DNA of 64,000 bases from Chlorobiota bacterium (GTDB lineage: Bacteria; Bacteroidota; Ignavibacteria; Tepidaquicellales; OLB5): positions 1,563 to 65,562 of the forward strand of contig JAKEEM010000047.1 of assembly GCA_022616535.1 (NCBI GenBank), read 5' to 3'. Below the pieces are notes generated by a model, which was not told the origin of the DNA, ran no database searches, and was given only the letters and a program-made list of their open reading frames with translations. Positions 18,374-49,453 of this stretch are shown piece by piece. Position numbers and translations under genes: made by a program. Position 1 is the first letter of the stretch. Each line of letters begins with the position of its first letter.

Positions 18374-18872
18374 ATGCACGAAAAAAGCATTGAGTTATTA
18401 AACAAGGCCGTAGCTGACGAGCTTTCGGCAGTACACCAGTATATGTATTTTCATTTCCACTCAGATGACCAGGGATTTGACCTGCTTGCGGGACTTTTCA
18501 GGCGCACAGCAATTGAAGAAATGCTGCATGTTGAAAAAGCTCGCCGAAAGAATCCTTTTTCTAAAGGGCGATGTTGATATGTCACCCTCAGGGAAAGTCC
18601 AGAAGCTGACTAATGTTAAGGATATGCTTAGCTTGGCTCGGAAAATGGAAGAGGAAAGCGCGAAGGAGTACAACATCTGGGCAAATGAATGCGCTGCAAA
18701 CGCAGATGCAATATCAAAACAGCTCTTTGAGGGGCTTGTAGCCGATGAAGAAAGGCATTTTGACCAGTATGACACAGAGCTTGAAAATATTACACAGTTC
18801 GGTCCCAGTTATCTTGCGCTGCAATCCATAGAAAGAAGCAAGAACATTTCCTCTCCGCCCCAAGAGGGTTAA
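18374..18872 (+). pseudogene. bfr: bacterioferritin interrupted by a +1 frameshift in an A5 run (18534-18538)
   Basis: ORF 18374..18577 gives ...AIEEMLHVEK and then garbage. ORF 18465..18872 in the +1 frame continues LAERILFLKGDVDM...ADEERHFDQYDTELE. Deleting one A from GTTGAAAAAGCTC restores HVEKLAERILFL, which parallels the E. coli Bfr segment around ...ERILFLEG. Confidence 0.8.
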
Positions 18873-20964: not shown

Positions 20965-22392
20965 CTAGACTTCATAATACAGGTGGAATTCATATGGATG
21001 CGGTCTGAGTGCCATTGGTTTAACTTCGTTTTCCATTTTGTAGCTTATCCAGGTTTGGATTAAGTCATCGGTGAAGACTCCCCCGAGTTTTAAGTATTCG
21101 TTATCGTTTGTTAGACTTTCAAGAGAAAGCTCAAGATTATCCGGCGCCTGGGGAATGTTCTTCAGCTCCTTATCGCTAAGATGGTAAATATCCATTTCCA
21201 TCGGCTTGCCCGGGTCGATTTTATTCATAATGCCGTCTATACCTGCCATAAGCATTGCAGCGAATGCAAAGTATGGGTTTGCCGTTCCGTCGGGACATCG
21301 GAATTCAACCCTCTTTGTCTTAGGATTTTCCGAATACATCGGAATTCTTACTGCAGCGCTCCTGTTGCGCTTTGAATATGCAAGGTTGACAGGAGCTTCA
21401 TAACCCGGCACAAGACGCTTGTATGAATTAGTCGTTGGATTTGTAAATGCTAAAAGCGAGGGGGCGTGTTTTAAAAGCCCCCCGATGTAATATAAAGCAG
21501 TCTGGCTTAAGCCGGCATACTCTTTGCCTGCAAAGAGCGGTTTGCTGTTTTGCCATAGACTCTGGTGGGTATGCATACCGCTTCCGTTATCGCCGAAAAT
21601 CGGCTTGGGCATAAACGTTGCGGTTTTGCCGAAGAGTCTTGCAGTGTTCTTTACGATATATTTAAACATCATCAAATTATCTGCACATTGAAGCATAGGT
21701 GAATATTTAACGTCAATTTCGCCCTGCCCGCCTGTTGCGACTTCATGGTGCTGGGTTTCAACCTCTATTCCCGCATCAATCAGGTGTTCTACCATAGCAT
21801 TGCGGACATCATTTGTTGAGTCAGCCGGCGGAACAGGGAAGTATCCTTCTTTCTGGCGGATTTTATGTCCGAGGTTTGCCTCAAGCTCAGAGCCGGTGTT
21901 CCAGAAGCCCTCGCGTGAATCGATTTTATACCAACTGCTGTATTCATTTACATTGTAGGCAACATGGTCTAAAATAAAAAACTCTGCCTCGGGCCCGAAA
22001 TAAGCATTATCCGCAATTTTGCTTTTTTTAAGAAATTCCTCAGCTTTTTTTACAACATATCTCGGATCCCTGCTGTAAGGCGCTTTACTTATGGGGTCGA
22101 TGATGTCACATATTAATGATAAGCTTTTAGTTTTGATAAAAGGGTCAACCCTTGCCGTTGACGGGTCGGGAATTATAAGCATGTCGGATTCGTTTATCGA
22201 CTGCCAGCCGCGGATTGAAGAGCCGTCGAAGCCAATGCCTTCACCGAACATTTTTTCCTCGAACTGGCTGACAGGTATGCTGAAATGCTGCCACTGCCCC
22301 GGCAAATCAGTAAAGCGGAAGTCAATCATTTTAACATCATGTTTTTTGATTAAATTAAAGACGTTTTTAACTGCCTGTGAACTTGATGCCAT
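20965..22392 (-). CDS. glnA: glutamine synthetase, type I
   Basis: 475 aa with FRFTDLPGQWQHF, GSGMHTHQSLW and NSYKRLVPGYEAP. Confidence 0.95.
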   Translation of the reverse strand: MASSSQAVKNVFNLIKKHDVKMIDFRFTDLPGQWQHFSIPVSQFEEKMFGEGIGFDGSSIRGWQSINESDMLIIPDPSTARVDPFIKTKSLSLICDIIDPISKAPYSRDPRYVVKKAEEFLKKSKIADNAYFGPEAEFFILDHVAYNVNEYSSWYKIDSREGFWNTGSELEANLGHKIRQKEGYFPVPPADSTNDVRNAMVEHLIDAGIEVETQHHEVATGGQGEIDVKYSPMLQCADNLMMFKYIVKNTARLFGKTATFMPKPIFGDNGSGMHTHQSLWQNSKPLFAGKEYAGLSQTALYYIGGLLKHAPSLLAFTNPTTNSYKRLVPGYEAPVNLAYSKRNRSAAVRIPMYSENPKTKRVEFRCPDGTANPYFAFAAMLMAGIDGIMNKIDPGKPMEMDIYHLSDKELKNIPQAPDNLELSLESLTNDNEYLKLGGVFTDDLIQTWISYKMENEVKPMALRPHPYEFHLYYEV

Positions 22393-22871
22393 TAATTTTC
22401 TCCTTTTGATTTATGTTTTAAATTAATTCCAAATGTTTCTTTATGCGACGATAAAACGATGGAGGTTCTTGTCGAACGGACGCCTTTCCATGATTGGATT
22501 TTAGCGAGCAGCTTTTCAAGGGTCGATGTGCTTTCAGTCCGGATTTTCAGAACATGCGAGCCGTCGCCGGTTATTGAGTGGCATTCGAGAATTTCGTGAT
22601 TTTGAAGCGCGTGCTGGACGAAATCTTTGTAATGGGTGGAAGAGTCGCTTATAACAAATATAAATGCGGTAATATCTTTGCCGAGTGACTTGTGGCTGAG
22701 CTTTGTTATGTAAGATTCGATAATTCCGTTTTCCTCAAGCTTGTTCATCCTGTCGGTAACCGAAGGAAGGGAGAGCTCGATTTTCTCGGCAATTTCGTTT
22801 CGCTTGATTCTTGAATTATTTTGCAGCAACTCAAGAATTTTAAAATCGATATCGTCTAAAATAAATTCCAC
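22392..22871 (-). CDS. Lrp/AsnC-family transcriptional regulator
   Basis: N-terminal HTH (LDDIDFKILELLQNNSRIKRNEIAEKIELSLPSVTDRMNKLEENGII) plus a RAM-like C-terminus. Its stop overlaps the glnA ATG (TAATG). Confidence 0.85.
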   Translation of the reverse strand: MEFILDDIDFKILELLQNNSRIKRNEIAEKIELSLPSVTDRMNKLEENGIIESYITKLSHKSLGKDITAFIFVISDSSTHYKDFVQHALQNHEILECHSITGDGSHVLKIRTESTSTLEKLLAKIQSWKGVRSTRTSIVLSSHKETFGINLKHKSKGEN

Positions 22872-26442: not shown

Positions 26443-26789
26443 CTTTAAGCTGATAAAACCGCCTGATTGCATGTTACAGGCAGGCAAATTTAAAGAAATT
26501 TTGTGGGTTTTACTAATGATTTTGGAGCGTAGTTTAAAATATTAAAGTGGAATTATTAGTATCATTTTTGGGTTAAATTTAAAAAAAACAGTATAATAAT
26601 CTACAATTGTCACAATATCTGATACGTATTGTCTAAATGTCATACTAAAATCTGATTTAGAGTTCGATTTAATTAAACCATTGGCTGCAAAAAGGCATCT
26701 TAATAGCAAATATTGCAAAGCAAATATTTAACTCCGACTGGGAACCTGCCTGTGGCAGAGTCGTAAAATTCTCCTTTTTGAAAAGAAAA

Positions 26790-26936
26790 AGAGCAGTGCG
26801 ATTGGGCGACGCTTGTTTTTGAGGGCTCAAGCGTGTAGGCGGCTTAGATAAAAGTAGGCTGCCGCCTGCCTCTAAAATAATTACCTGTATTTGACCCATA
26901 GGACTTGCTTTTAGAGGCAGGCATCGCACAGGCTCT
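26790..26936. other. 147-nt GC-rich structured element (four-way junction), strand unresolved
   Basis: Closing stem AGAGC/GTGCGAT (26790-26802) pairs with ATCGCAC/GCTCT (26923-26936). Three internal hairpins include a perfect 14-bp inverted repeat, GCCTGCCTCTAAAA (26864-26877) with TTTTAGAGGCAGGC (26909-26922). On the minus strand a U-rich run follows. Confidence 0.4.
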
Positions 26937-27002
26937 GAAAAAAATTTTGAAAAAAGCAATTATCGAAAAGTAAACATTTATTTATTAGCATAAATTGCAG
27001 AT

Positions 27003-29027
27003 ATGAGAATTTTAATTTTATTGATTTTAGTTCTTTTTTTACACCAAATCCGGGGACAATCAAGTGTTGAGACAACATCCGCACCGGAAGTCAATGGCAA
27101 GATTGATGATTCCGAATGGAAAGGGGCCAAAGTATTTACAGATTTTTATATGACAATTCCGAAGACTGATGAAAAATATCACGACAGTACAATTGTGCTC
27201 GTAAAACAGACTAAAGACGCAATATTTTTCGGATTCAGATACTGGCCCAAAGGCAAGGTGCTTAGGCAGTCCTTAACAAGAGACGTGAGCACCGAAGAGG
27301 AAAATGAGTTTTTCATAGTGCTTGACCTTGAAAATAAAAACAAAAACGGTTACCTGTTTGCAATCAGTTTTCAGGATAACCAGCGAGATATGCTTATTTA
27401 TAACGAGAGAAACCTTTCTTCGGAGTGGGACTGGATTTGGGAAAACAGAGCTAAAATTTATAAGGAGCCGAAGGACGGCAGCCCCGGATATATCGAAGTG
27501 GAAGTAAAAATTCCGGTTGATAGAATCCAAAACAAGAACAAAAAACAGTTTGGATTTGATATTCAAATGTTTTCTTATAAACCCGATGGGAATTATTATT
27601 ACTATTCCGTAATACCCGATAGTGAGCTTTTGACGGTTAAGCATACCTATAAAATGGATTTGGCGACGCCTTTTGATGAGAGACTTAATCTTAGATTTAA
27701 CGCCACCCCGTTTGTAGTTGCAAATAAGTTCAATGACTTTAAGGGGGATTTTGAATTCGGGGGCGAGTTCAACGTAAGCTTGGATAAGCATAAGCTGAAA
27801 GGGACTTATAATACCGATGAATCAACGTTAGAAGCGGACCCTTTCAGGTTTTCATTTTACGGCAGGCCGATTTTCCTGCAGGAGAAAAGACCTTTCTTCA
27901 GTAAGGATTTGGATATTTTCAGAACTCAGAACCTGAGTCTTTTTTACACTAGAGCTATACAGAACATTAATTACGGAGCTAATTACACTTACAGAAGCGA
28001 TAATCTTAAGCTGGGTGCTGTTTATGTTCAGGAAGAGTCCGATACTATACGCGGCTCAAGAAAAAGGCTTGCCGCTTTAAGGCCAAATTTTAATTTTAAA
28101 GATTTTAATATCGGAGGGTTGTACGTTTATACCCACGATACTTTGGGCAATACCGATGAAAGCGTGGTCAGCCTGGACGGCAAGGTTAATCTTCCATCTC
28201 GGTTCAGACTCGCTTCTCAATACGCAAGAAGCTTTAACACCGACGGCAAAACGGGGAATGTATATTCGGTTTCCTCATGGTATGAATTCAATAATTCCGG
28301 AGGTCCTTACGGCGATTTAAACTACACAAGATATGACAGCAATTTCCGCGCGACCACTTTGTTTAATGATTACGGAAATGACTATGACGCGCTGTTTGCC
28401 GGCTTTGGATGGAAGTTTGTCCGCAACGCAAAGACTTTTACGGATATAAATTTATATACAAGATACTACAGGGCAAGAAGGTTATCCGATAATTTTGATT
28501 ACCAGAACGGCTTTTTCTGGGAGGTTTTTTACAAGCTTAACGGCTGGCTGAGCTTTTATCATAACCTTGAATACGACCGCCCCAACGATTATGACGAAAA
28601 CCTGCTCGTTTTAAAAAGAGATAATGTCTTAACCGAGCACAATTTTAAGATTGTGTTCGGCAACCACTCGTTTCAGGCGGGATTTTACGGAGGTAAATAT
28701 TTCGGTACGGTGCTTAAAAATCCCTATGCAAATATGAGCCTGACGTTTTTCGGAAGGCTGAGAACAACGCTTAATTATAATTACAGGGAACTGTTCGATA
28801 TAAAGCAGTCCATTTATAGCGCAAAAATAGATTATAAAGTTATCGACAAGCTTTACTTAAGAACTTTCTTCCAGAAGGATACATACAACAGGCGCGCTTT
28901 GTGGAACACGCTGGTTCAATATGAGTTCTTTGGGGGAAGCAGCGTGTATCTTGTTCTTAATTTGGAAGGCAACAGGCTTGAATATACAAGAAGGTATTTT
29001 AAAGTCGGCTACGAGTTTAACTTTTAA
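27003..29027 (+). CDS. outer-membrane protein, DUF5916-like (N-terminal CBM9-like domain plus predicted beta-barrel)
   Basis: Signal peptide. N-terminus APEVNGKIDDSEWKGAKVFTDFYMTIPK... and the alternating aromatic-rich C-terminus ending YFKVGYEFNF (beta-barrel-like terminal Phe). Family call is from memory. Confidence 0.45.
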   Translation: MRILILLILVLFLHQIRGQSSVETTSAPEVNGKIDDSEWKGAKVFTDFYMTIPKTDEKYHDSTIVLVKQTKDAIFFGFRYWPKGKVLRQSLTRDVSTEEENEFFIVLDLENKNKNGYLFAISFQDNQRDMLIYNERNLSSEWDWIWENRAKIYKEPKDGSPGYIEVEVKIPVDRIQNKNKKQFGFDIQMFSYKPDGNYYYYSVIPDSELLTVKHTYKMDLATPFDERLNLRFNATPFVVANKFNDFKGDFEFGGEFNVSLDKHKLKGTYNTDESTLEADPFRFSFYGRPIFLQEKRPFFSKDLDIFRTQNLSLFYTRAIQNINYGANYTYRSDNLKLGAVYVQEESDTIRGSRKRLAALRPNFNFKDFNIGGLYVYTHDTLGNTDESVVSLDGKVNLPSRFRLASQYARSFNTDGKTGNVYSVSSWYEFNNSGGPYGDLNYTRYDSNFRATTLFNDYGNDYDALFAGFGWKFVRNAKTFTDINLYTRYYRARRLSDNFDYQNGFFWEVFYKLNGWLSFYHNLEYDRPNDYDENLLVLKRDNVLTEHNFKIVFGNHSFQAGFYGGKYFGTVLKNPYANMSLTFFGRLRTTLNYNYRELFDIKQSIYSAKIDYKVIDKLYLRTFFQKDTYNRRALWNTLVQYEFFGGSSVYLVLNLEGNRLEYTRRYFKVGYEFNF

Positions 29028-29054
29028 AGATTACTTAAATAATTAATAACAGCT

Positions 29055-29411
29055 ATGAAACAAACGCTCTCATTTTTTTTGCTTTTAGCCCTCCATAGCT
29101 TTGTATTTGAAATAAACACATATTCAGAACAGAAACAAATTGAACCGAGAAAGCTTAAATATGAATACACGGTTGAAACCGATTTATCGGTTAAAGATTT
29201 CTCCGATGTTTTTTGCGAACGCTTAAGCTCAAAACATAAATGGAGCAAAGTATCAGCAATCATAGAACTGGATGATACTTATACGAGTGTTTTCAGGTTT
29301 AACGATGAAGCAAACAGTTCCTGGAAGTGCGAGCTGAAAATAAAGAAAATTGTTAGCGAAATAAATAAAATGTCAGTTGAAATGGTTATTGCCCCTTTTT
29401 TTGGGAGTTAA
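29055..29411 (+). CDS. small secreted hypothetical protein
   Basis: 118 aa with a signal peptide (MKQTLSFFLLLALHSFVF). No recognisable domain. Confidence 0.4.
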   Translation: MKQTLSFFLLLALHSFVFEINTYSEQKQIEPRKLKYEYTVETDLSVKDFSDVFCERLSSKHKWSKVSAIIELDDTYTSVFRFNDEANSSWKCELKIKKIVSEINKMSVEMVIAPFFGS

Positions 29412-29451
29412 TTAACTGATTGGAATTACAAATAGAAATTCTGTCAAGTCA

Positions 29452-29482
29452 ATTTACCTCATTAGGCACTAATGAGGTAAAT
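29452..29482. repeat. perfect 14-bp inverted repeat ATTTACCTCATTAG-gca-CTAATGAGGTAAAT
   Basis: Read directly. The half-site CTAATGAGGT recurs at 29696-29710 and 48145-48159. It is flanked by the 8-bp direct repeat ACTGATTG (29415-29422 and 29502-29509). Confidence 0.9.
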
Positions 29483-29716
29483 GTTTATAAGGTTCATAAT
29501 CACTGATTGTTACGAAAGTTTTAAAAGATTTATCCCTCAAAAACACTCTTAACAAACTATCTTTAAAAACGATGAGCAATCAAAACATTTTTCCTTTTTT
29601 TTGTTATTTTCTTTTTGTTTTCCCCCTTCTTTTTTTTTCAATTCCTAATTATTAATTGCTAATTATTAATCGTTTACTGACTTTCACCTCATATATGCCT
29701 AATGAGGTGAATACAC

Positions 29717-29747
29717 TTGCACTCGCAATTTTTATATAGTAATTTTG
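29717..29747 (+). promoter_or_regulatory. candidate Bacteroidetes-type promoter (TTG-N20-TAATTTTG)
   Basis: TTG at 29717-29719 and TAATTTTG at 29740-29747 (TAnnTTTG consensus). The same 20-nt spacing occurs at the 48177/48200 locus. Confidence 0.4.
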
Positions 29748-29751
29748 CCAC

Positions 29752-30118
29752 GCTTGGTTCAACAGCGGCTGGAGGGCTGCTGCAGGTTACCAGTCCGGTA
29801 CTGTGTAAAAGCGGTTTCGGACGGGCGATGAGCCGTTCCGCCGCCTCTAAAAGGCGGGATTTGTACAACTGGCCAAGCTTTGGTTCCGGGAGTATATGAA
29901 AGTATAACCGGAGTGACGACCGGTAAAGTACAAGATTGAGGCTTCACCCTCTGTAATGCGTAGCAGGGGGAGTTGGAAGTGCGGGCTTTTGACTCACTGC
30001 CGCGGATTGTGCTTTATTGTCAAACAATCGAGTACGAGTCTGTTTACCAAAAAAGTAAGCGGCATGGTCAATTAAACCGACTTTCAGCCAATTTAAACCC
30101 ACCTGGGTGGTATTTTTT
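29752..30118 (+). ncRNA. candidate approximately 365-nt structured non-coding RNA of unknown family
   Basis: GC-rich, hairpin-dense stretch in a 970-bp gene-free gap. It starts just after the promoter-like box and ends with a short GC hairpin (30097-30110) plus T6. It contains only junk ORFs of 69 aa or fewer. No hallmark motifs of RNase P, tmRNA or SRP RNA. Confidence 0.3.
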
Positions 30119-30241
30119 AAAATGTCAAATTTCAAAGCTCAAATGTCAAATTAAAAATCAAATATCAAATAGTAAAGCGTAAAAAGGCAGAAAGCAAAAA
30201 AACAAAAAAAAGTAACGGCGAGGACACCTCTCCAGAAAAAT

Positions 30242-30262
30242 GACCCGCCAGCTGGCAGGGTC
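30242..30262. repeat. GC-rich palindrome GACCCGCCAGCTGGCAGGGTC (member of the CCGCCAGC...CAGGC family)
   Basis: Read directly. Nearby are AACCCCGTAGGGGTT (30298-30312), GCCAAGGCTTTGGC (30345-30358) and GGCAGGCAGGC (30356-30366). Confidence 0.8.
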
Positions 30263-30391
30263 AAATATTTATAGAAAAAAAACGGAGATAGAAACACAAC
30301 CCCGTAGGGGTTGAATAAATCCTAAATCGGCAATCCCTGACTGCGCCAAGGCTTTGGCAGGCAGGCAAAATACAAAATTGAATTGAAGGGT

Positions 30392-31084
30392 TTACAAAAG
30401 CTTTTTCAAAAGGGCTAAATCCTGTGGAGAGGTTATTTTAATGTTGTCCGTTGGACCCTCGATAATCTTAACTCGGTAACCAACATATTCAACAAGGGAA
30501 GACTCGTCGGTAAAGTCATTTATCCGCCTGCATTTTTTATAGGCTCTTTCAAGCACTTTGTGCCTGAAAACCTGCGGGGTCTGAACTGTCCACAGATTTT
30601 CTCTGTCAACGGTCTGGTTCACATAACCTTTTTTATCGCGCTTTACGGTCTCGCTGACTTTCGTTCCTACGATTACTTCCCCGTATTTATAAGCTTGTAT
30701 TAGAACTGAATCAACAAGCTTTGAGTTAATATTGGGTCTTGCAGCATCGTGGATTATTACCAAATCATTGCTGCCTGAGACTTCTATCTGCATAAATGCA
30801 TTTTTAACTGATTCAAAGCGTGTTTTGCCGCCTTCAGCAAGTCTGGTAAGTTTTGTAATTTTATTTTTAGCTGCAAGCTTGTGTATTAATTCGAAATATT
30901 CCCTTTTTGCTGAAATAATTATTTCATCAACATTTCTGCATTTCTGAAATGCAATCAGTGAATATAATATGACAGGTTTTCCGGATAAATTTAAAAACTG
31001 TTTGGGTAGCTTGGTGCCTGAGAACTTGTTAAATCTGCTTCCGGAACCTGCAGCAGTTATTATCGCAAAAATTTTTCTGTTCAT
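30392..31084 (-). CDS. ispD: 2-C-methyl-D-erythritol 4-phosphate cytidylyltransferase
   Basis: IFAIITAAGSGSRF and VIIHDAARP. I prefer the internal ATG at 31084 (MNRKIF...) to the track start at 31132. Confidence 0.9.
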   Translation of the reverse strand: MNRKIFAIITAAGSGSRFNKFSGTKLPKQFLNLSGKPVILYSLIAFQKCRNVDEIIISAKREYFELIHKLAAKNKITKLTRLAEGGKTRFESVKNAFMQIEVSGSNDLVIIHDAARPNINSKLVDSVLIQAYKYGEVIVGTKVSETVKRDKKGYVNQTVDRENLWTVQTPQVFRHKVLERAYKKCRRINDFTDESSLVEYVGYRVKIIEGPTDNIKITSPQDLALLKKLL

Positions 31085-31171
31085 AAATAAAAACTTAAAA
31101 AAAACCCAGCGATAAGCCGGGGCATAAATCATATTAATGAGAAAAGCAGGAGCATAAAATAAATTTTAAAA

Positions 31172-47237: not shown

Positions 47238-48017
47238 ATGCGCCTTCATTTGTTTGAGTTTGAGGATTTGTCGTGGTTTCCCGATGTGATAAGGCGATGC
47301 CAGACCGATTATCTCCATTTCGTAATCAGCAAGTTTGAAATTTACAAACCTGCCGTTCCACTTGTAAAAGAAGTGATTGATAAAACGGGAACGAATGAAA
47401 TTATTGACTTATGCTCAGGCGGAGGCGGCGGAACGGATGTGTTTCATAAAAATCCCGAAGAGATTACCGGAAAACAAATCAAAATGACACTAAGCGATAA
47501 ATATCCTAACCTGACTGCTTTCGAACAAATTAAAACAAGCACAGGCGGGAAAGTGGACTATATAAAAGAATCTGTTGATGCTTTGAATGTTCCGCAGAAC
47601 ATAAAAGCTATGAGAACATTATTTTCATCGTTTCATCACTTTAAGCCTGAAGATGCTAAGTCAATTTTGAAAAGTGCTGTTACAAATGAAATCCCGATTG
47701 CTGTATTTGAAGGCGCGGAAAAAAGTATTTTAAATTTCCTTGGAATTCTTTTGCTGACTCCCCTGACTTTCATAATCATTACACCATTTATCAAGCCGTT
47801 TCGGCTCAGCAGGATTTTCTTTACTTATCTGATTCCGTTAATACCCCTCACAACTGTGTGGGACGGGCTTGTGTCAGTTCTTAGAATGTATAGTCCTAAT
47901 GAAATGCTTAAAATGGCAATGGAAGTTGACTCCATTAACTACAAATGGAGCTCAGGCAAGGTCCGGGGAAAAATAGGAAATGCGGTTTTGTATTTGGTGG
48001 GTTATCCTGTAAATTAA
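47238..48017 (+). CDS. SAM-methyltransferase-like protein with C-terminal TM segments (hypothetical)
   Basis: EIIDLCSGGGGG resembles SAM motif I. Two hydrophobic helices lie near residues 165-205. TATATTTG box at 47223-47230. Confidence 0.45.
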   Translation: MRLHLFEFEDLSWFPDVIRRCQTDYLHFVISKFEIYKPAVPLVKEVIDKTGTNEIIDLCSGGGGGTDVFHKNPEEITGKQIKMTLSDKYPNLTAFEQIKTSTGGKVDYIKESVDALNVPQNIKAMRTLFSSFHHFKPEDAKSILKSAVTNEIPIAVFEGAEKSILNFLGILLLTPLTFIIITPFIKPFRLSRIFFTYLIPLIPLTTVWDGLVSVLRMYSPNEMLKMAMEVDSINYKWSSGKVRGKIGNAVLYLVGYPVN

Positions 48018-48069
48018 TTAAACAATAAATGGAATTTCTGAAAATACTTTCTCTTATCGTGCAGTTCGG
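47955..48069 (+). repeat. direct repeat copy 1 (last 20 codons of the 47238 gene, the spacer, and a 14-codon 5' fragment of the 48593 gene)
   Basis: CGGTTTTGTATTTGGTGGGTTATCCTGTAAATTAATT matches 48540-48576 at 34/37 positions. ATGGAATTTCTGAAAATAC...TTCGG matches 48593-48633 at 34/41. The truncated ORF MEFLKILSLIVQFG(YTIIN*) spans 48029-48088. Confidence 0.85.
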
Positions 48070-48511
48070 ATATACAATTATTAATTAATAATTACTAATT
48101 AGTAATTGATTTTGTTAACCGAAAATCGGATTTTACTCTATATGTGCCTAATGAGGTGAGAGTTGTTAAACAGACCTTGACAAATAAATTATAAAGTGTT
48201 AAATTTACCTTGTTACTGTAGGGCAACCCGCCTGCCTGCTGCAGGCAGGCCGGGTCGCACCCTGCATTACAGTGTCCTTCGGCTGCGCTCTCCGAAGGAA
48301 TCCTACGGACTGGATTAAAAAATGGAAAAAATGTCAAAATTTCATCACGGTGAAAAACATGCTAAAAACTTACAAAAAAAGAGACCCTTCGTTTCACTTA
48401 GAGGTTGCCAACTTTACATAATGTCGGATTTGAGACACGGTTTTTTTTTGCCGTGTTATTTTTGCTCAATACGCCGGATTTTCGCACTGCCAATTTGTCC
48501 GTGATAATTTT
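48070..48511 (+). other. 442-bp gene-free insert between the direct repeats: AT-rich palindromes, TGCCTAATGAGGTGA box, promoter-like TTG-N20-TAAATTTA, three GC hairpins, and an intrinsic terminator
   Basis: Box at 48145-48159. TTG at 48177-48179 and TAAATTTA at 48200-48207. Hairpins at 48227-48254, 48275-48299 and 48299-48316. Terminator ACACGG-T9G-CCGTGT plus TATTTTTG at 48435-48463. Confidence 0.5.
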
Positions 48512-48633
48512 GGCGAAAACGGAGGAAAAACGAGGAATTCGGTTTTGTATTTAGTAGGTTATCCTGTAAGTTAATTTTGCTATTTTGCAATTATGGAACT
48601 TCTGAAAATACTCTATTTAATCGTTCAATTCGG
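48512..48633 (+). repeat. direct repeat copy 2 (orphan 3' fragment GENGGKTRNSVLYLVGYPVS*, the spacer, and the true start of the 48593 gene)
   Basis: See copy 1. The orphan fragment parallels GKVRGKIGNAVLYLVGYPVN* of the intact gene and ends with a stop at 48572-48574. Confidence 0.85.
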
Positions 48634-49453
48634 CTTGCCGCCGACATTCCCCGAAGGCGATGAAAATCTTCAGCAGGGGCTTGAAAGCAAAATCGAAGTC
48701 CTTTGCAAGGATAACTTTTCCGGGCAGACAACAACTTTGCACGTTTTAAAGAACAATCCCAAATTTAAAAAAACAACCCCCTCTCTTTTTACGGAAGACA
48801 ATACAAAAAACCTGTATATTTTCCTGACGCATATCGATTCAACTTACCTGTATATTGAAGATTGCGATTACAGCATGCTGAAGTTCATGCGTTATAAAAC
48901 CAATCACCAAAACTTACGCTACGAGGTTGTTGATTCATCGGATTACAATATTAAAGAAGAAAAAATGCGGGTTATCCGGTGGACTAAAGGAATTGATTTT
49001 AAAATTTTCGAAAACTCCACGGTTTTTGAAACAAAATTCGATACATATATTGAATACTGGCAGTGTATTGATAAACTTGCATTTTCCCCAAAATACCCGT
49101 TTGCGAAGCCAAAACCAACTGCGCTGCGTAAAAATTACACCGAGGAACAAAGCGAGGATTTGAAATACATACTCTCGCACCCGATTATGGTTTTATCAGT
49201 AATTCCCCTTGATGATTTAAGCTATGATTTGCCTTTTAATCTAACAGGGAAATCTTTCGAGACATCGCTTGAATCGACTAATCAAGGCGACATCGAAGGA
49301 ACGGGCATCGATTTGGACGGCGATAAAACGCTCGATGCTTTCTGGTATATGGATATAATTGACACCAAACCCGCAGAGGTCTACACACGGTTGTACATAA
49401 ATGTCGAAGGCAAATGGAAGCCCGTTTGGTACACTTACTTTAAGGAAATGTAA
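48593..49453 (+). CDS. hypothetical protein
   Basis: 286 aa with no signal peptide or domain I recognise, apart from a DxDxDG-like stretch (GIDLDGDKTLD). Confidence 0.5.
   Translation: MELLKILYLIVQFGLPPTFPEGDENLQQGLESKIEVLCKDNFSGQTTTLHVLKNNPKFKKTTPSLFTEDNTKNLYIFLTHIDSTYLYIEDCDYSMLKFMRYKTNHQNLRYEVVDSSDYNIKEEKMRVIRWTKGIDFKIFENSTVFETKFDTYIEYWQCIDKLAFSPKYPFAKPKPTALRKNYTEEQSEDLKYILSHPIMVLSVIPLDDLSYDLPFNLTGKSFETSLESTNQGDIEGTGIDLDGDKTLDAFWYMDIIDTKPAEVYTRLYINVEGKWKPVWYTYFKEM

Follow-up and report, generated by a model that had tools for sequence, protein, structure and literature searches.

The 64,000-nucleotide (nt) stretch of contig JAKEEM010000047.1 analysed here (the window), which comes from a Chlorobiota bacterium, contains a 980-nt intergenic gap (29412-30391) that is bounded on the left by the genes of a pair of secreted proteins without Pfam domains (a protein of 674 amino acids (aa) and ORF118), both on the + strand, and on the right by the 3' end of ispD on the - strand, which has two terminators of its own (30313-30297 and 30259-30244). 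Within this gap lies the RNA element el1 (29750-30118, + strand), which we suggest, with moderate confidence, is a stand-alone gene for a structured noncoding RNA (ncRNA) of about 365 nt belonging to an uncatalogued family, type A, with three known members. The element and the sequences from which it would be transcribed are:

29641-29675, + strand: AT-rich UP-like element with AATTNNTAATT repeats, which align with the same repeats upstream of eight other units
29683-29711, + strand: inverted-repeat box TTCACCTCAT-N9-ATGAGGTGAA, a candidate regulator site, recognized by inverted-repeat detection and by the invariance of its core
29716-29747, + strand: promoter with the -33 element CTTG (29716-19) and the -7 element TAATTTTG (29740-47), a rare pattern in which CTTG and the -7 box are conserved in 9/9 units
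29750-30118, + strand: el1 RNA (type A), about 365 nt from its predicted 5' end, marked by a GC island, a fold z-score that stands out on the + strand only, and homologs

The GC content per 100 nt is 0.47-0.61 across 29700-30050, compared with 0.24-0.35 in the flanks and 0.40 in coding sequence, and the 29750-30118 segment is the highest GC island among all intergenic regions of the window. Segment 29748-30118 of the + strand has a folding energy of -140.7 kcal/mol and a z-score of -4.3, which is below all 140 equal-length control segments of the window (mean -0.43, sd 1.1, minimum -3.6), whereas the - strand of the same segment reaches only -1.8 to -2.2. Upstream, the promoter has the layout TTG (29717-19)-N20-TAATTTTG (29740-47); counting both strands, the 64 kb contain just 7 instances of the general pattern TTG-N18-21-TAnnTTTG, and the three intergenic ones are at el1, 20 nt upstream of eno and upstream of the gene at 22392-22871. 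Given that the other two intergenic matches directly precede eno and another gene, this genome uses the motif. Scans against Rfam 15 (4227 models), at gathering score and then at looser E cut-offs, gave no match in the whole window at either gathering score or E<=0.1, and nothing within 29700-30130 at E<=10.

An initial annotation of the window, made by reading the sequence, had described the gap as lacking coding potential and as carrying a Bacteroidota-type promoter, a GC-rich island and an independent unit encoding a large structured RNA of no recognisable family. These descriptions are borne out: the open reading frames (ORFs) inside the gap are only 48-69 aa long and have no protein similarity, the promoter at 29717-29747 is rare in the window and conserved in homologs, the island stands out in GC content, the unit combines a strong fold with a conserved promoter and homologs, and the Rfam scan is empty.

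What does not hold is the description of el1 as an orphan, as at least three family members were found. The other two are in metagenome Ga0326597, the source of all related loci named here (L106, L107, L108, L109, L110, L112 and L114), at L112:6948-7367(-) and at L114:4275-4600 plus L106:1-316, the latter two merged into one locus over a contig overlap of 173 nt with 99.4% identity. The split of the relative's gene between the end of L114 and the start of L106, with one mismatch in the overlap, may reflect heterogeneity among strains or breaks that repeats induced within the RNA. As aligned, el1 has 372 nt (counted from 29747), the L112 member 420 nt and the merged L114/L106 member 469 nt; the three are 52-73% identical, with about ten blocks of identity separated by variable inserts and deletions. 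They share the box, the promoter, the 5' start GCUUGGUU and a terminal short hairpin with a U-run; all three begin with GC..CGCUUGGUU a few nt after the -7 box and end with CCACCNUGGUGG and the U-run. We define type A by the inverted-repeat box and -33/-7 promoter, a 5' GCUUGGUU paired with GGCYRAGC (helix P1), the blocks CAACUGGC, GGGAGUA..GAAAG, GACGAC, UAAAGUAC-like, GUAAGC and CUUUCA, the hairpin hp1, and the CCACCNUGGUGG hairpin followed by a U-run; all of them are present in el1, and their order there is that of L112 and L114/L106. An nhmmer profile of the three sequences finds its own members again at E 1e-80 to 1e-121, a non-independent result as el1 is included, and the only independent match is the L106 fragment (E 2e-41); support for the family therefore comes from the shared blocks, the 52-73% identity with insertions and deletions and the common start and end, and not from nhmmer re-detection. 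The genes around the three members differ (ispD; MatE/TetR; UvrA/S6/CN-hydrolase), and the downstream gene is convergent in 3/3 loci and different each time, which argues that the RNA acts in trans and is not a leader or riboswitch.

The three sequences, which come from two closely related organisms, were used to evaluate the fold. Its parts are:

29752-29878, + strand: 5' domain, in which P1 (29752-59/29871-78) closes hairpins at 29763-82, 29793-822 and 29835-60
29883-29914, + strand: Pi (29883-89/29908-14), around a variable insert with conserved GGGAGUA ... GAAAG
29918-30069, + strand: long-range helix PX (GACCG 29918-22/UGGUC 30065-69)
29925-30035, + strand: central region with two mutually exclusive conserved pairings
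29947-29970, + strand: hairpin hp1, CCCUCUGU-AAUGCGUA-GCAGGGGG, with stem 29948-54/29963-69
30099-30118, + strand: 3' hairpin CCAC-CUGG-GUGG, then UA and U6, invariant in the three members

RNAalifold run on all three sequences proposes 100 pairs, 26 of them with both-sided changes, and run on the two relatives alone it recovers P1, the three hairpins inside P1, Pi, PX, hp1 and the terminal hairpin T. P1, formed by the 5' end GCUUGGUU and the internal GGCYRAGC, closes only the first ~130 nt; all its cells are paired (24/24), with two one-sided changes and conserved G-U pairs that are compatible with the + strand only. The hairpins inside the 5' domain of el1 have diverged in sequence, and a covariance model built on this domain of the relatives gives an end-to-end alignment of el1 in the same layout, if a weak one (10.6 bits). 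Compensatory changes are found in Pi (two; 20/21 cells paired), in PX (two, relative to GACUC/GAGUC; 15/15 cells paired) and in hp1 (three; 21/21 cells paired); PX is independently predicted for L112 and for L114, and hp1, with a pairing probability of 0.99, is present in 3/3 members with differing stem sequences. The central region is conserved in two forms: conformer I is a long helix (29925-34/30006-15; 28/30 cells paired, two compensatory changes), and conformer II combines GUAC (29928-31/30032-35) with GAUUG 29934-38/CAAUC 30025-29, is the choice of RNAalifold for the two relatives and has three compensatory changes in the relatives and one more, C-G to U-A, in el1. When the pairs of P1, hp1, T and the central helix are counted on an unedited MAFFT alignment, 92.9% of the cells pair, compared with 32-54% when the partners are slid, and six pairs have double changes, a number reached in 1/500 shuffles and compared with 0-2 for slid partners.

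Several helices had been drawn by hand in the initial annotation, and here the picture is divided: the complementary segments exist, but most of the pairings are neither favoured nor conserved. The long-range pairing GGTAAA/TTTACC has an ensemble pairing probability of about 0 and is not conserved in homologs, GAGG/CCTC and GATTGT/ACAATC likewise have probabilities of about 0, and CCGCC/GGCGG reaches 0.13. The same annotation had named the absence of compensatory changes from homologs as a ground for giving up the proposal, and such changes are present in several helices. Its terminator at 30097-30118 is conserved in the three members, but the hairpin has just 4 bp (CCAC/GUGG, 30099-30102/30107-30110) before U6 and was not called by a consensus terminator scan; 30099-30118 is a probable weak intrinsic terminator. 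Among the helices of the minimum-free-energy fold of el1 alone, 29861-66/29928-33, 29868-72/29920-24 and UUGAC/GUCAA, the last of which is overridden by PX, were rejected as not conserved. A candidate pseudoknot, GAAAG of the Pi insert with CUUUC (30081-85), and a candidate pairing UUGGUU/AACCRA are either invariant or not conserved.

The promoter region of el1 is not unique. The control z-scores flagged a second structured GC island at about 48200, which is preceded by the same upstream sequence as el1 and defines a sibling unit:

48075-48523, + strand: el2 (type D), with the same AT-rich element, promoter and box (48140-48159) and a different GC-rich hairpin RNA

The module common to el1 and el2 consists of the AATTNNTAATT-repeat AT-rich tract, the box ATAT(A/G)TGCCTAATGAGGTGA and the -33/-7 promoter. 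A metagenome scan with the box returned eleven loci, seven of which are true module copies, all in Ga0326597. Every copy precedes a GC-rich, RNA-like segment, and these segments fall into four types:

Type A: el1; L112; L114 + L106
Type B: L107:3407-3844(-)
Type C: L109:7230-7678(+)
Type D: el2; L106; L108; L110

In total, 9 units of 4 RNA types share the AT-rich tract, the box and the -33/-7 promoter, and the box core ATAT.TGCCTAATGAGGTGA is invariant in all of them. The box, whose length is given as 27 bp, ends 5 nt before the -33 CTTG in el1 and 16 nt before it in el2 and L108. Because a tract similar to 29641-29675 also precedes the promoter of the bfr gene in L109, the AT-rich tract is probably a generic upstream promoter element. 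By analogy with regulators of other ncRNA sets, we infer that the box could be the binding site of a dimeric regulator, which would tie at least four ncRNA types into one regulon. The RNAs behind the box are also without matches: no Rfam match at E<=5 was found in L107, L109, L110 or L114 other than chance matches outside the RNAs, L112 gave nothing at E<=10, and ARAGORN found no transfer RNA (tRNA) or transfer-messenger RNA (tmRNA) in the 7 related loci.

A further sequence related to the box lies on the - strand within 29417-29482. It contains a perfect 14-bp palindrome (29452-29482) that is a variant of the box and that reads, on the minus strand, TGCCTAATGAGGTAA followed by CTTGACA. To judge from these motifs it is a degenerate module copy pointing leftwards into the 3' end of ORF118, perhaps an antisense promoter, perhaps a relic.

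L109 is syntenic with 18.4-23.5 kb of the window at 84-95% protein identity, and the Ga0326597 organism is a close relative of the window organism. The window nevertheless has no counterpart of the type C RNA of L109, and the contexts of the type A copies differ. This type C unit has its first 10 nt and its promoter identical to those of the L112 type A gene and lies upstream of bfr, the window ortholog of which (18465-18872) has no type C unit. el2 is homologous to the units in L106, L108 and L110, and it is flanked by direct repeats of ~105 nt (47967-48069 and 48524-48633, 85% identical) in which the last part of gene 47238-48017, the spacer and the first part of gene 48593-49453 are duplicated; these two genes are not paralogs. 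The arrangement around el2 resembles either a Campbell-type integration or an insertion that produced a long target duplication.

Combining the fold, the family and the shared module, our best guess, which draws on analogy with known systems, is that type A RNAs act in trans, as regulators or by binding protein, and belong to a co-regulated set of ncRNAs. In this scheme, transcription would start from the Bacteroidota-type -33/-7 promoter behind the AT-rich UP-like tract and the invariant 27-bp box, and the transcript would end at the short conserved hairpin and its U-run. A dimeric regulator would bind the shared box and thereby co-regulate at least four ncRNA types, and the RNA would act through its fold, by binding protein or as a regulator, and not through simple antisense pairing. 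We infer an accessory or regulatory rather than a universal housekeeping role, given that the copies are paralogous, non-syntenic and fast-diverging, and that units are variably present between organisms at ~90% protein identity. The early likening of el1 to a housekeeping or large regulatory RNA is correspondingly shifted: it resembles a single-copy housekeeping RNA less, and a paralogous, fast-turnover family that shares a regulatory module more. In a bolder version, which we put forward tentatively and think doubtful, at least four unrelated large RNAs (types A-D), none of them known to Rfam, are all under one invariant palindromic operator that is fused to the promoter, and type A is a new class of functional RNA, either a ribonucleoprotein (RNP) scaffold or a ribozyme; given the two conserved, mutually exclusive pairings of its centre, it could then be a conformational switch acting in trans.

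Several points weigh against the proposal of a type A RNA gene with a regulatory function. The evidence comes from only three sequences of two closely related organisms, the covariation counts are small and rely partly on hand alignment, and the weak fit of the inner hairpins of the el1 5' domain to the relatives' model is missed with default filters. The central pairing is ambiguous, conformers I and II being equally conserved, the el1 helix UGCCGC/GCGGCA is positioned differently from its counterpart in the relatives, and the terminator hairpin is weak at 4 bp. The transcript and its 5' and 3' ends are predictions from sequence, and the functional part is an analogy in which both the regulator and the RNA partner are hypothetical. 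The family may also be very narrow in distribution, as none of the 25 other ispD loci examined in GTDB genomes of Ignavibacteria has a homolog of the el1 RNA, as none turned up in closer relatives identified by their ispD (78% and 66% identical) or their 674-aa protein (92%, 74% and 66%) or by blastn in phage and plasmid collections, and as four patterns scanned against viral contigs gave chance matches or none. A 23-mer from the RNA core had zero matches in metagenomes, and the covariance model of the relatives' 5' domain identified no further members in 39 sources of 365 kb in total. Type A is a previously uncatalogued family that, as far as these searches indicate, is limited so far to a narrow Ignavibacteria lineage.

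Among the alternatives, a promoter-bearing repeated intergenic element, either of the repetitive extragenic palindrome (REP) or miniature inverted-repeat transposable element (MITE) kind or selfish, is one that we consider unlikely. The hairpins would then be functionless and the family would be a set of drifting repeat copies. Consistent with this, the module occurs in several copies (2 in the window, 7 in a single metagenome), the units coincide with synteny breaks (the genes flanking el1 abut other genes in relatives), a unit present in one organism can be missing from a close relative, el2 lies between 105-nt direct repeats, and type D units are built of REP-like palindromes. Assemblies also break here: in two sequencing runs, Logan contigs stop at 29709 and at 30249, the latter near the palindrome 30244-30259, and the conspecific metagenome-assembled genome (MAG) GCA_022615155.1 matches the window to 29648, diverges at 29649 and differs for its last 72 nt. 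However, the promoter module shares exact 31-mers between units, for instance el1 and L107, and its multiple copies explain the left breaks (29649 and 29709); the exact 31-mer shared through the box would by itself account for the contig breaks. A mobile insertion or strain-variable island, which the breaks had suggested, was rejected as the principal explanation once the module proved to be multi-copy; there was no sign of a transposase, of terminal inverted repeats or of an empty site. The RNA itself has one copy in the 64 kb, no terminal inverted repeats and no target duplication, its flanks have no repeats beyond low-complexity T/A tracts, and no transposase or nuclease recurs near any unit. 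Conserved blocks, conserved ends and compensatory changes at 52-73% identity are unexpected for neutral decay. An orphan RNA that guides or scaffolds a protein whose gene lies elsewhere, of the omega-RNA/HEARO type that serves IscB, IsrB or TnpB or from another RNP or defence system, would fit the size and multi-helix architecture, the several diverged copies at variable sites without a conserved neighbour, and the box as a subterminal hairpin at the left, and HEARO RNAs reportedly occur without an adjacent ORF. We regard it as quite improbable: neither HEARO nor any other Rfam family matches at E<=10, no IscB/TnpB/TnpA-like gene adjoins any unit examined, the examined loci have housekeeping neighbours and both RNA ends conserved, the 5' end GCUUGGUU is conserved and paired in P1, unlike a variable guide, and the same box and promoter precede unrelated RNAs.

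There is very little likelihood that el1 is a known housekeeping RNA (RNase P RNA, tmRNA, 6S RNA or signal recognition particle (SRP) RNA) diverged beyond the Rfam models. Its size would be right for RNase P RNA or tmRNA, it has long-range helices and a strong predicted promoter with an UP-like element, and there are superficial likenesses, such as GAAAG..GGGCUCC in L114 and, close to the 3' end of both L112 and L114, UCCACCA. Nevertheless, cmscan found nothing at E<=10 for any of the four families and ARAGORN found no tRNA or tmRNA in the window; the 5' end pairs internally in P1 and not with the 3' end, as opposed to the P1 of RNase P RNA; two diverged copies are present in one metagenome, with lengths varying over 372-469 nt in the family; and the copies are non-syntenic in a relative with 84-95% identical proteins. 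For 6S RNA, SRP RNA and likewise the cobalamin riboswitch, the absence of a covariance model match is joined by the multi-domain fold and by the convergent downstream genes in 3/3 loci. Finally, the reading of el1 as a protein-coding region, degraded or unusual, or as a cis-regulatory leader has next to nothing in its favor and is, of all the rivals, the only one to be excluded outright. A 149-codon - strand frame with a single stop is the sole point for it, and such a frame can arise by chance in a GC-rich segment; neither this frame nor the other open frames are conserved in homologs, where the insertions and deletions are not multiples of three. Six-frame translations gave no Pfam match and no similar protein among 5.8 billion clusters, an exhaustive comparison of one frame with 1.84 billion representatives gave a single meaningless match, and tblastn queries with the genes found beside the orthologs in relatives detected no remnant in the el1 gap. 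Cis-regulation has no same-strand downstream gene to act on in any of the three loci. Weighing these alternatives together, we favor the stand-alone gene for a type A RNA.

Two minor features adjoin el1:

29585-29640, + strand: T-rich tract upstream of the promoter module; a similar tract precedes the module in L107 and L112
30119-30175, + strand: AAATGTCAAAT-like repeats directly 3' of the RNA; el2 and the type D units of L106, L108 and L110 are likewise followed by a similar box

The boxes found 3' of the RNA in several units (30119-30175, 48326-48343, L106, L108 and L110) are of the form AAAATGTCAAA(A)TTTCA and read TTGACA on the opposite strand. To the left of the gap, the 674-aa and 118-aa proteins (27003-29411) form an adjacent pair that is conserved across Ignavibacteria; neither has a Pfam domain, the N-terminus of each resembles a signal peptide, and the C-terminus of the 674-aa protein (...YEFNF) is outer-membrane-barrel-like. 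To the right, the ispD ORF (30392-31132, - strand), called at 246 aa, is probably 16 aa too long, with homologs of 226-235 aa and an alignment that begins at MNRKIFAII. Two other intergenic segments of the window stand out. The 515-nt region upstream of the 674-aa gene (26488-27002) has a GC peak of 0.50 and a z-score of about -2.5 on both strands, and L088, the 92% relative, has a gap of about the same length; the region could be a leader or regulatory RNA. The GC-richer segment 59614-60004 (- strand) has a stable fold (z = -3.1) and holds a small ORF of ~95 aa, below the ORF-length cut-off, that reads as pterin-4a-carbinolamine dehydratase-like; it is probably a gene rather than an RNA.

The finding yields a family with conserved structure, a shared operator-promoter module and a hypothesis of co-regulation, and it is more interesting than a lone orphan because el1 is a family member that exposes sibling RNAs. 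The box ATAT.TGCCTAATGAGGTGA provides a simple DNA handle for enumerating the RNA set in genomes and metagenomes. If the units form a true regulon, they pose an experimentally tractable question in a phylum with almost no described RNA biology; if they are a narrow lineage-specific curiosity, type A is still a clean new Rfam candidate.

These units have partial parallels in other bacterial systems. In the Gac/Rsm system, a GacA box lies upstream of rsmX, rsmY and rsmZ, and csrB and csrC are comparable. By analogy, the units described here resemble the Gac/Rsm and Csr RNAs in being stand-alone ncRNA genes that share a palindromic sequence upstream of their promoters, in their intrinsic terminators and in the presence of diverged paralogs at unlinked sites. 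They differ in that type A has no enrichment of GGA loops (8 GGA in 372 nt, with about 7 expected), is larger and has long-range helices and multi-helix junctions, and in that the type A box abuts the -33 element and the RNAs behind the box are mutually unrelated. Bacterial RNase P RNA (of the RNase P class that is itself called type A) is similar to el1 in size, in its stand-alone gene and in its long-range helices, but el1 has no covariance model match, no terminal P1, no P4 and no CR-I to CR-V, and it has paralogs. As with REP elements, bacterial interspersed mosaic elements (BIMEs) and MITEs, the units are multi-copy, hairpin-rich and intergenic and coincide with assembly breaks and synteny breakpoints; here, however, the repeated part is the promoter module and not the RNA, the RNA copies have diverged with compensatory changes, and el1 has no terminal inverted repeats.

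Pipelines that examine GC-rich intergenic regions (GC-IGR) use long regions of this kind as their signal (PMC8723152, PMC11109978), and the same signal exposed el1. There is also a likeness to the large orphan structured RNAs OLE, ROOL, GOLLD, raiA and HEARO: type A, too, is a GC-rich island in an AT-rich genome, several hundred nt long with many helices and without a consistent gene association. It is set apart from them by the lack of a covariance model match, by its occurrence in one narrow Ignavibacteria lineage and by its shared promoter module. Large structured bacterial RNAs of unassigned function are rare, and OLE, GOLLD, ROOL, raiA and HEARO later revealed new biology.

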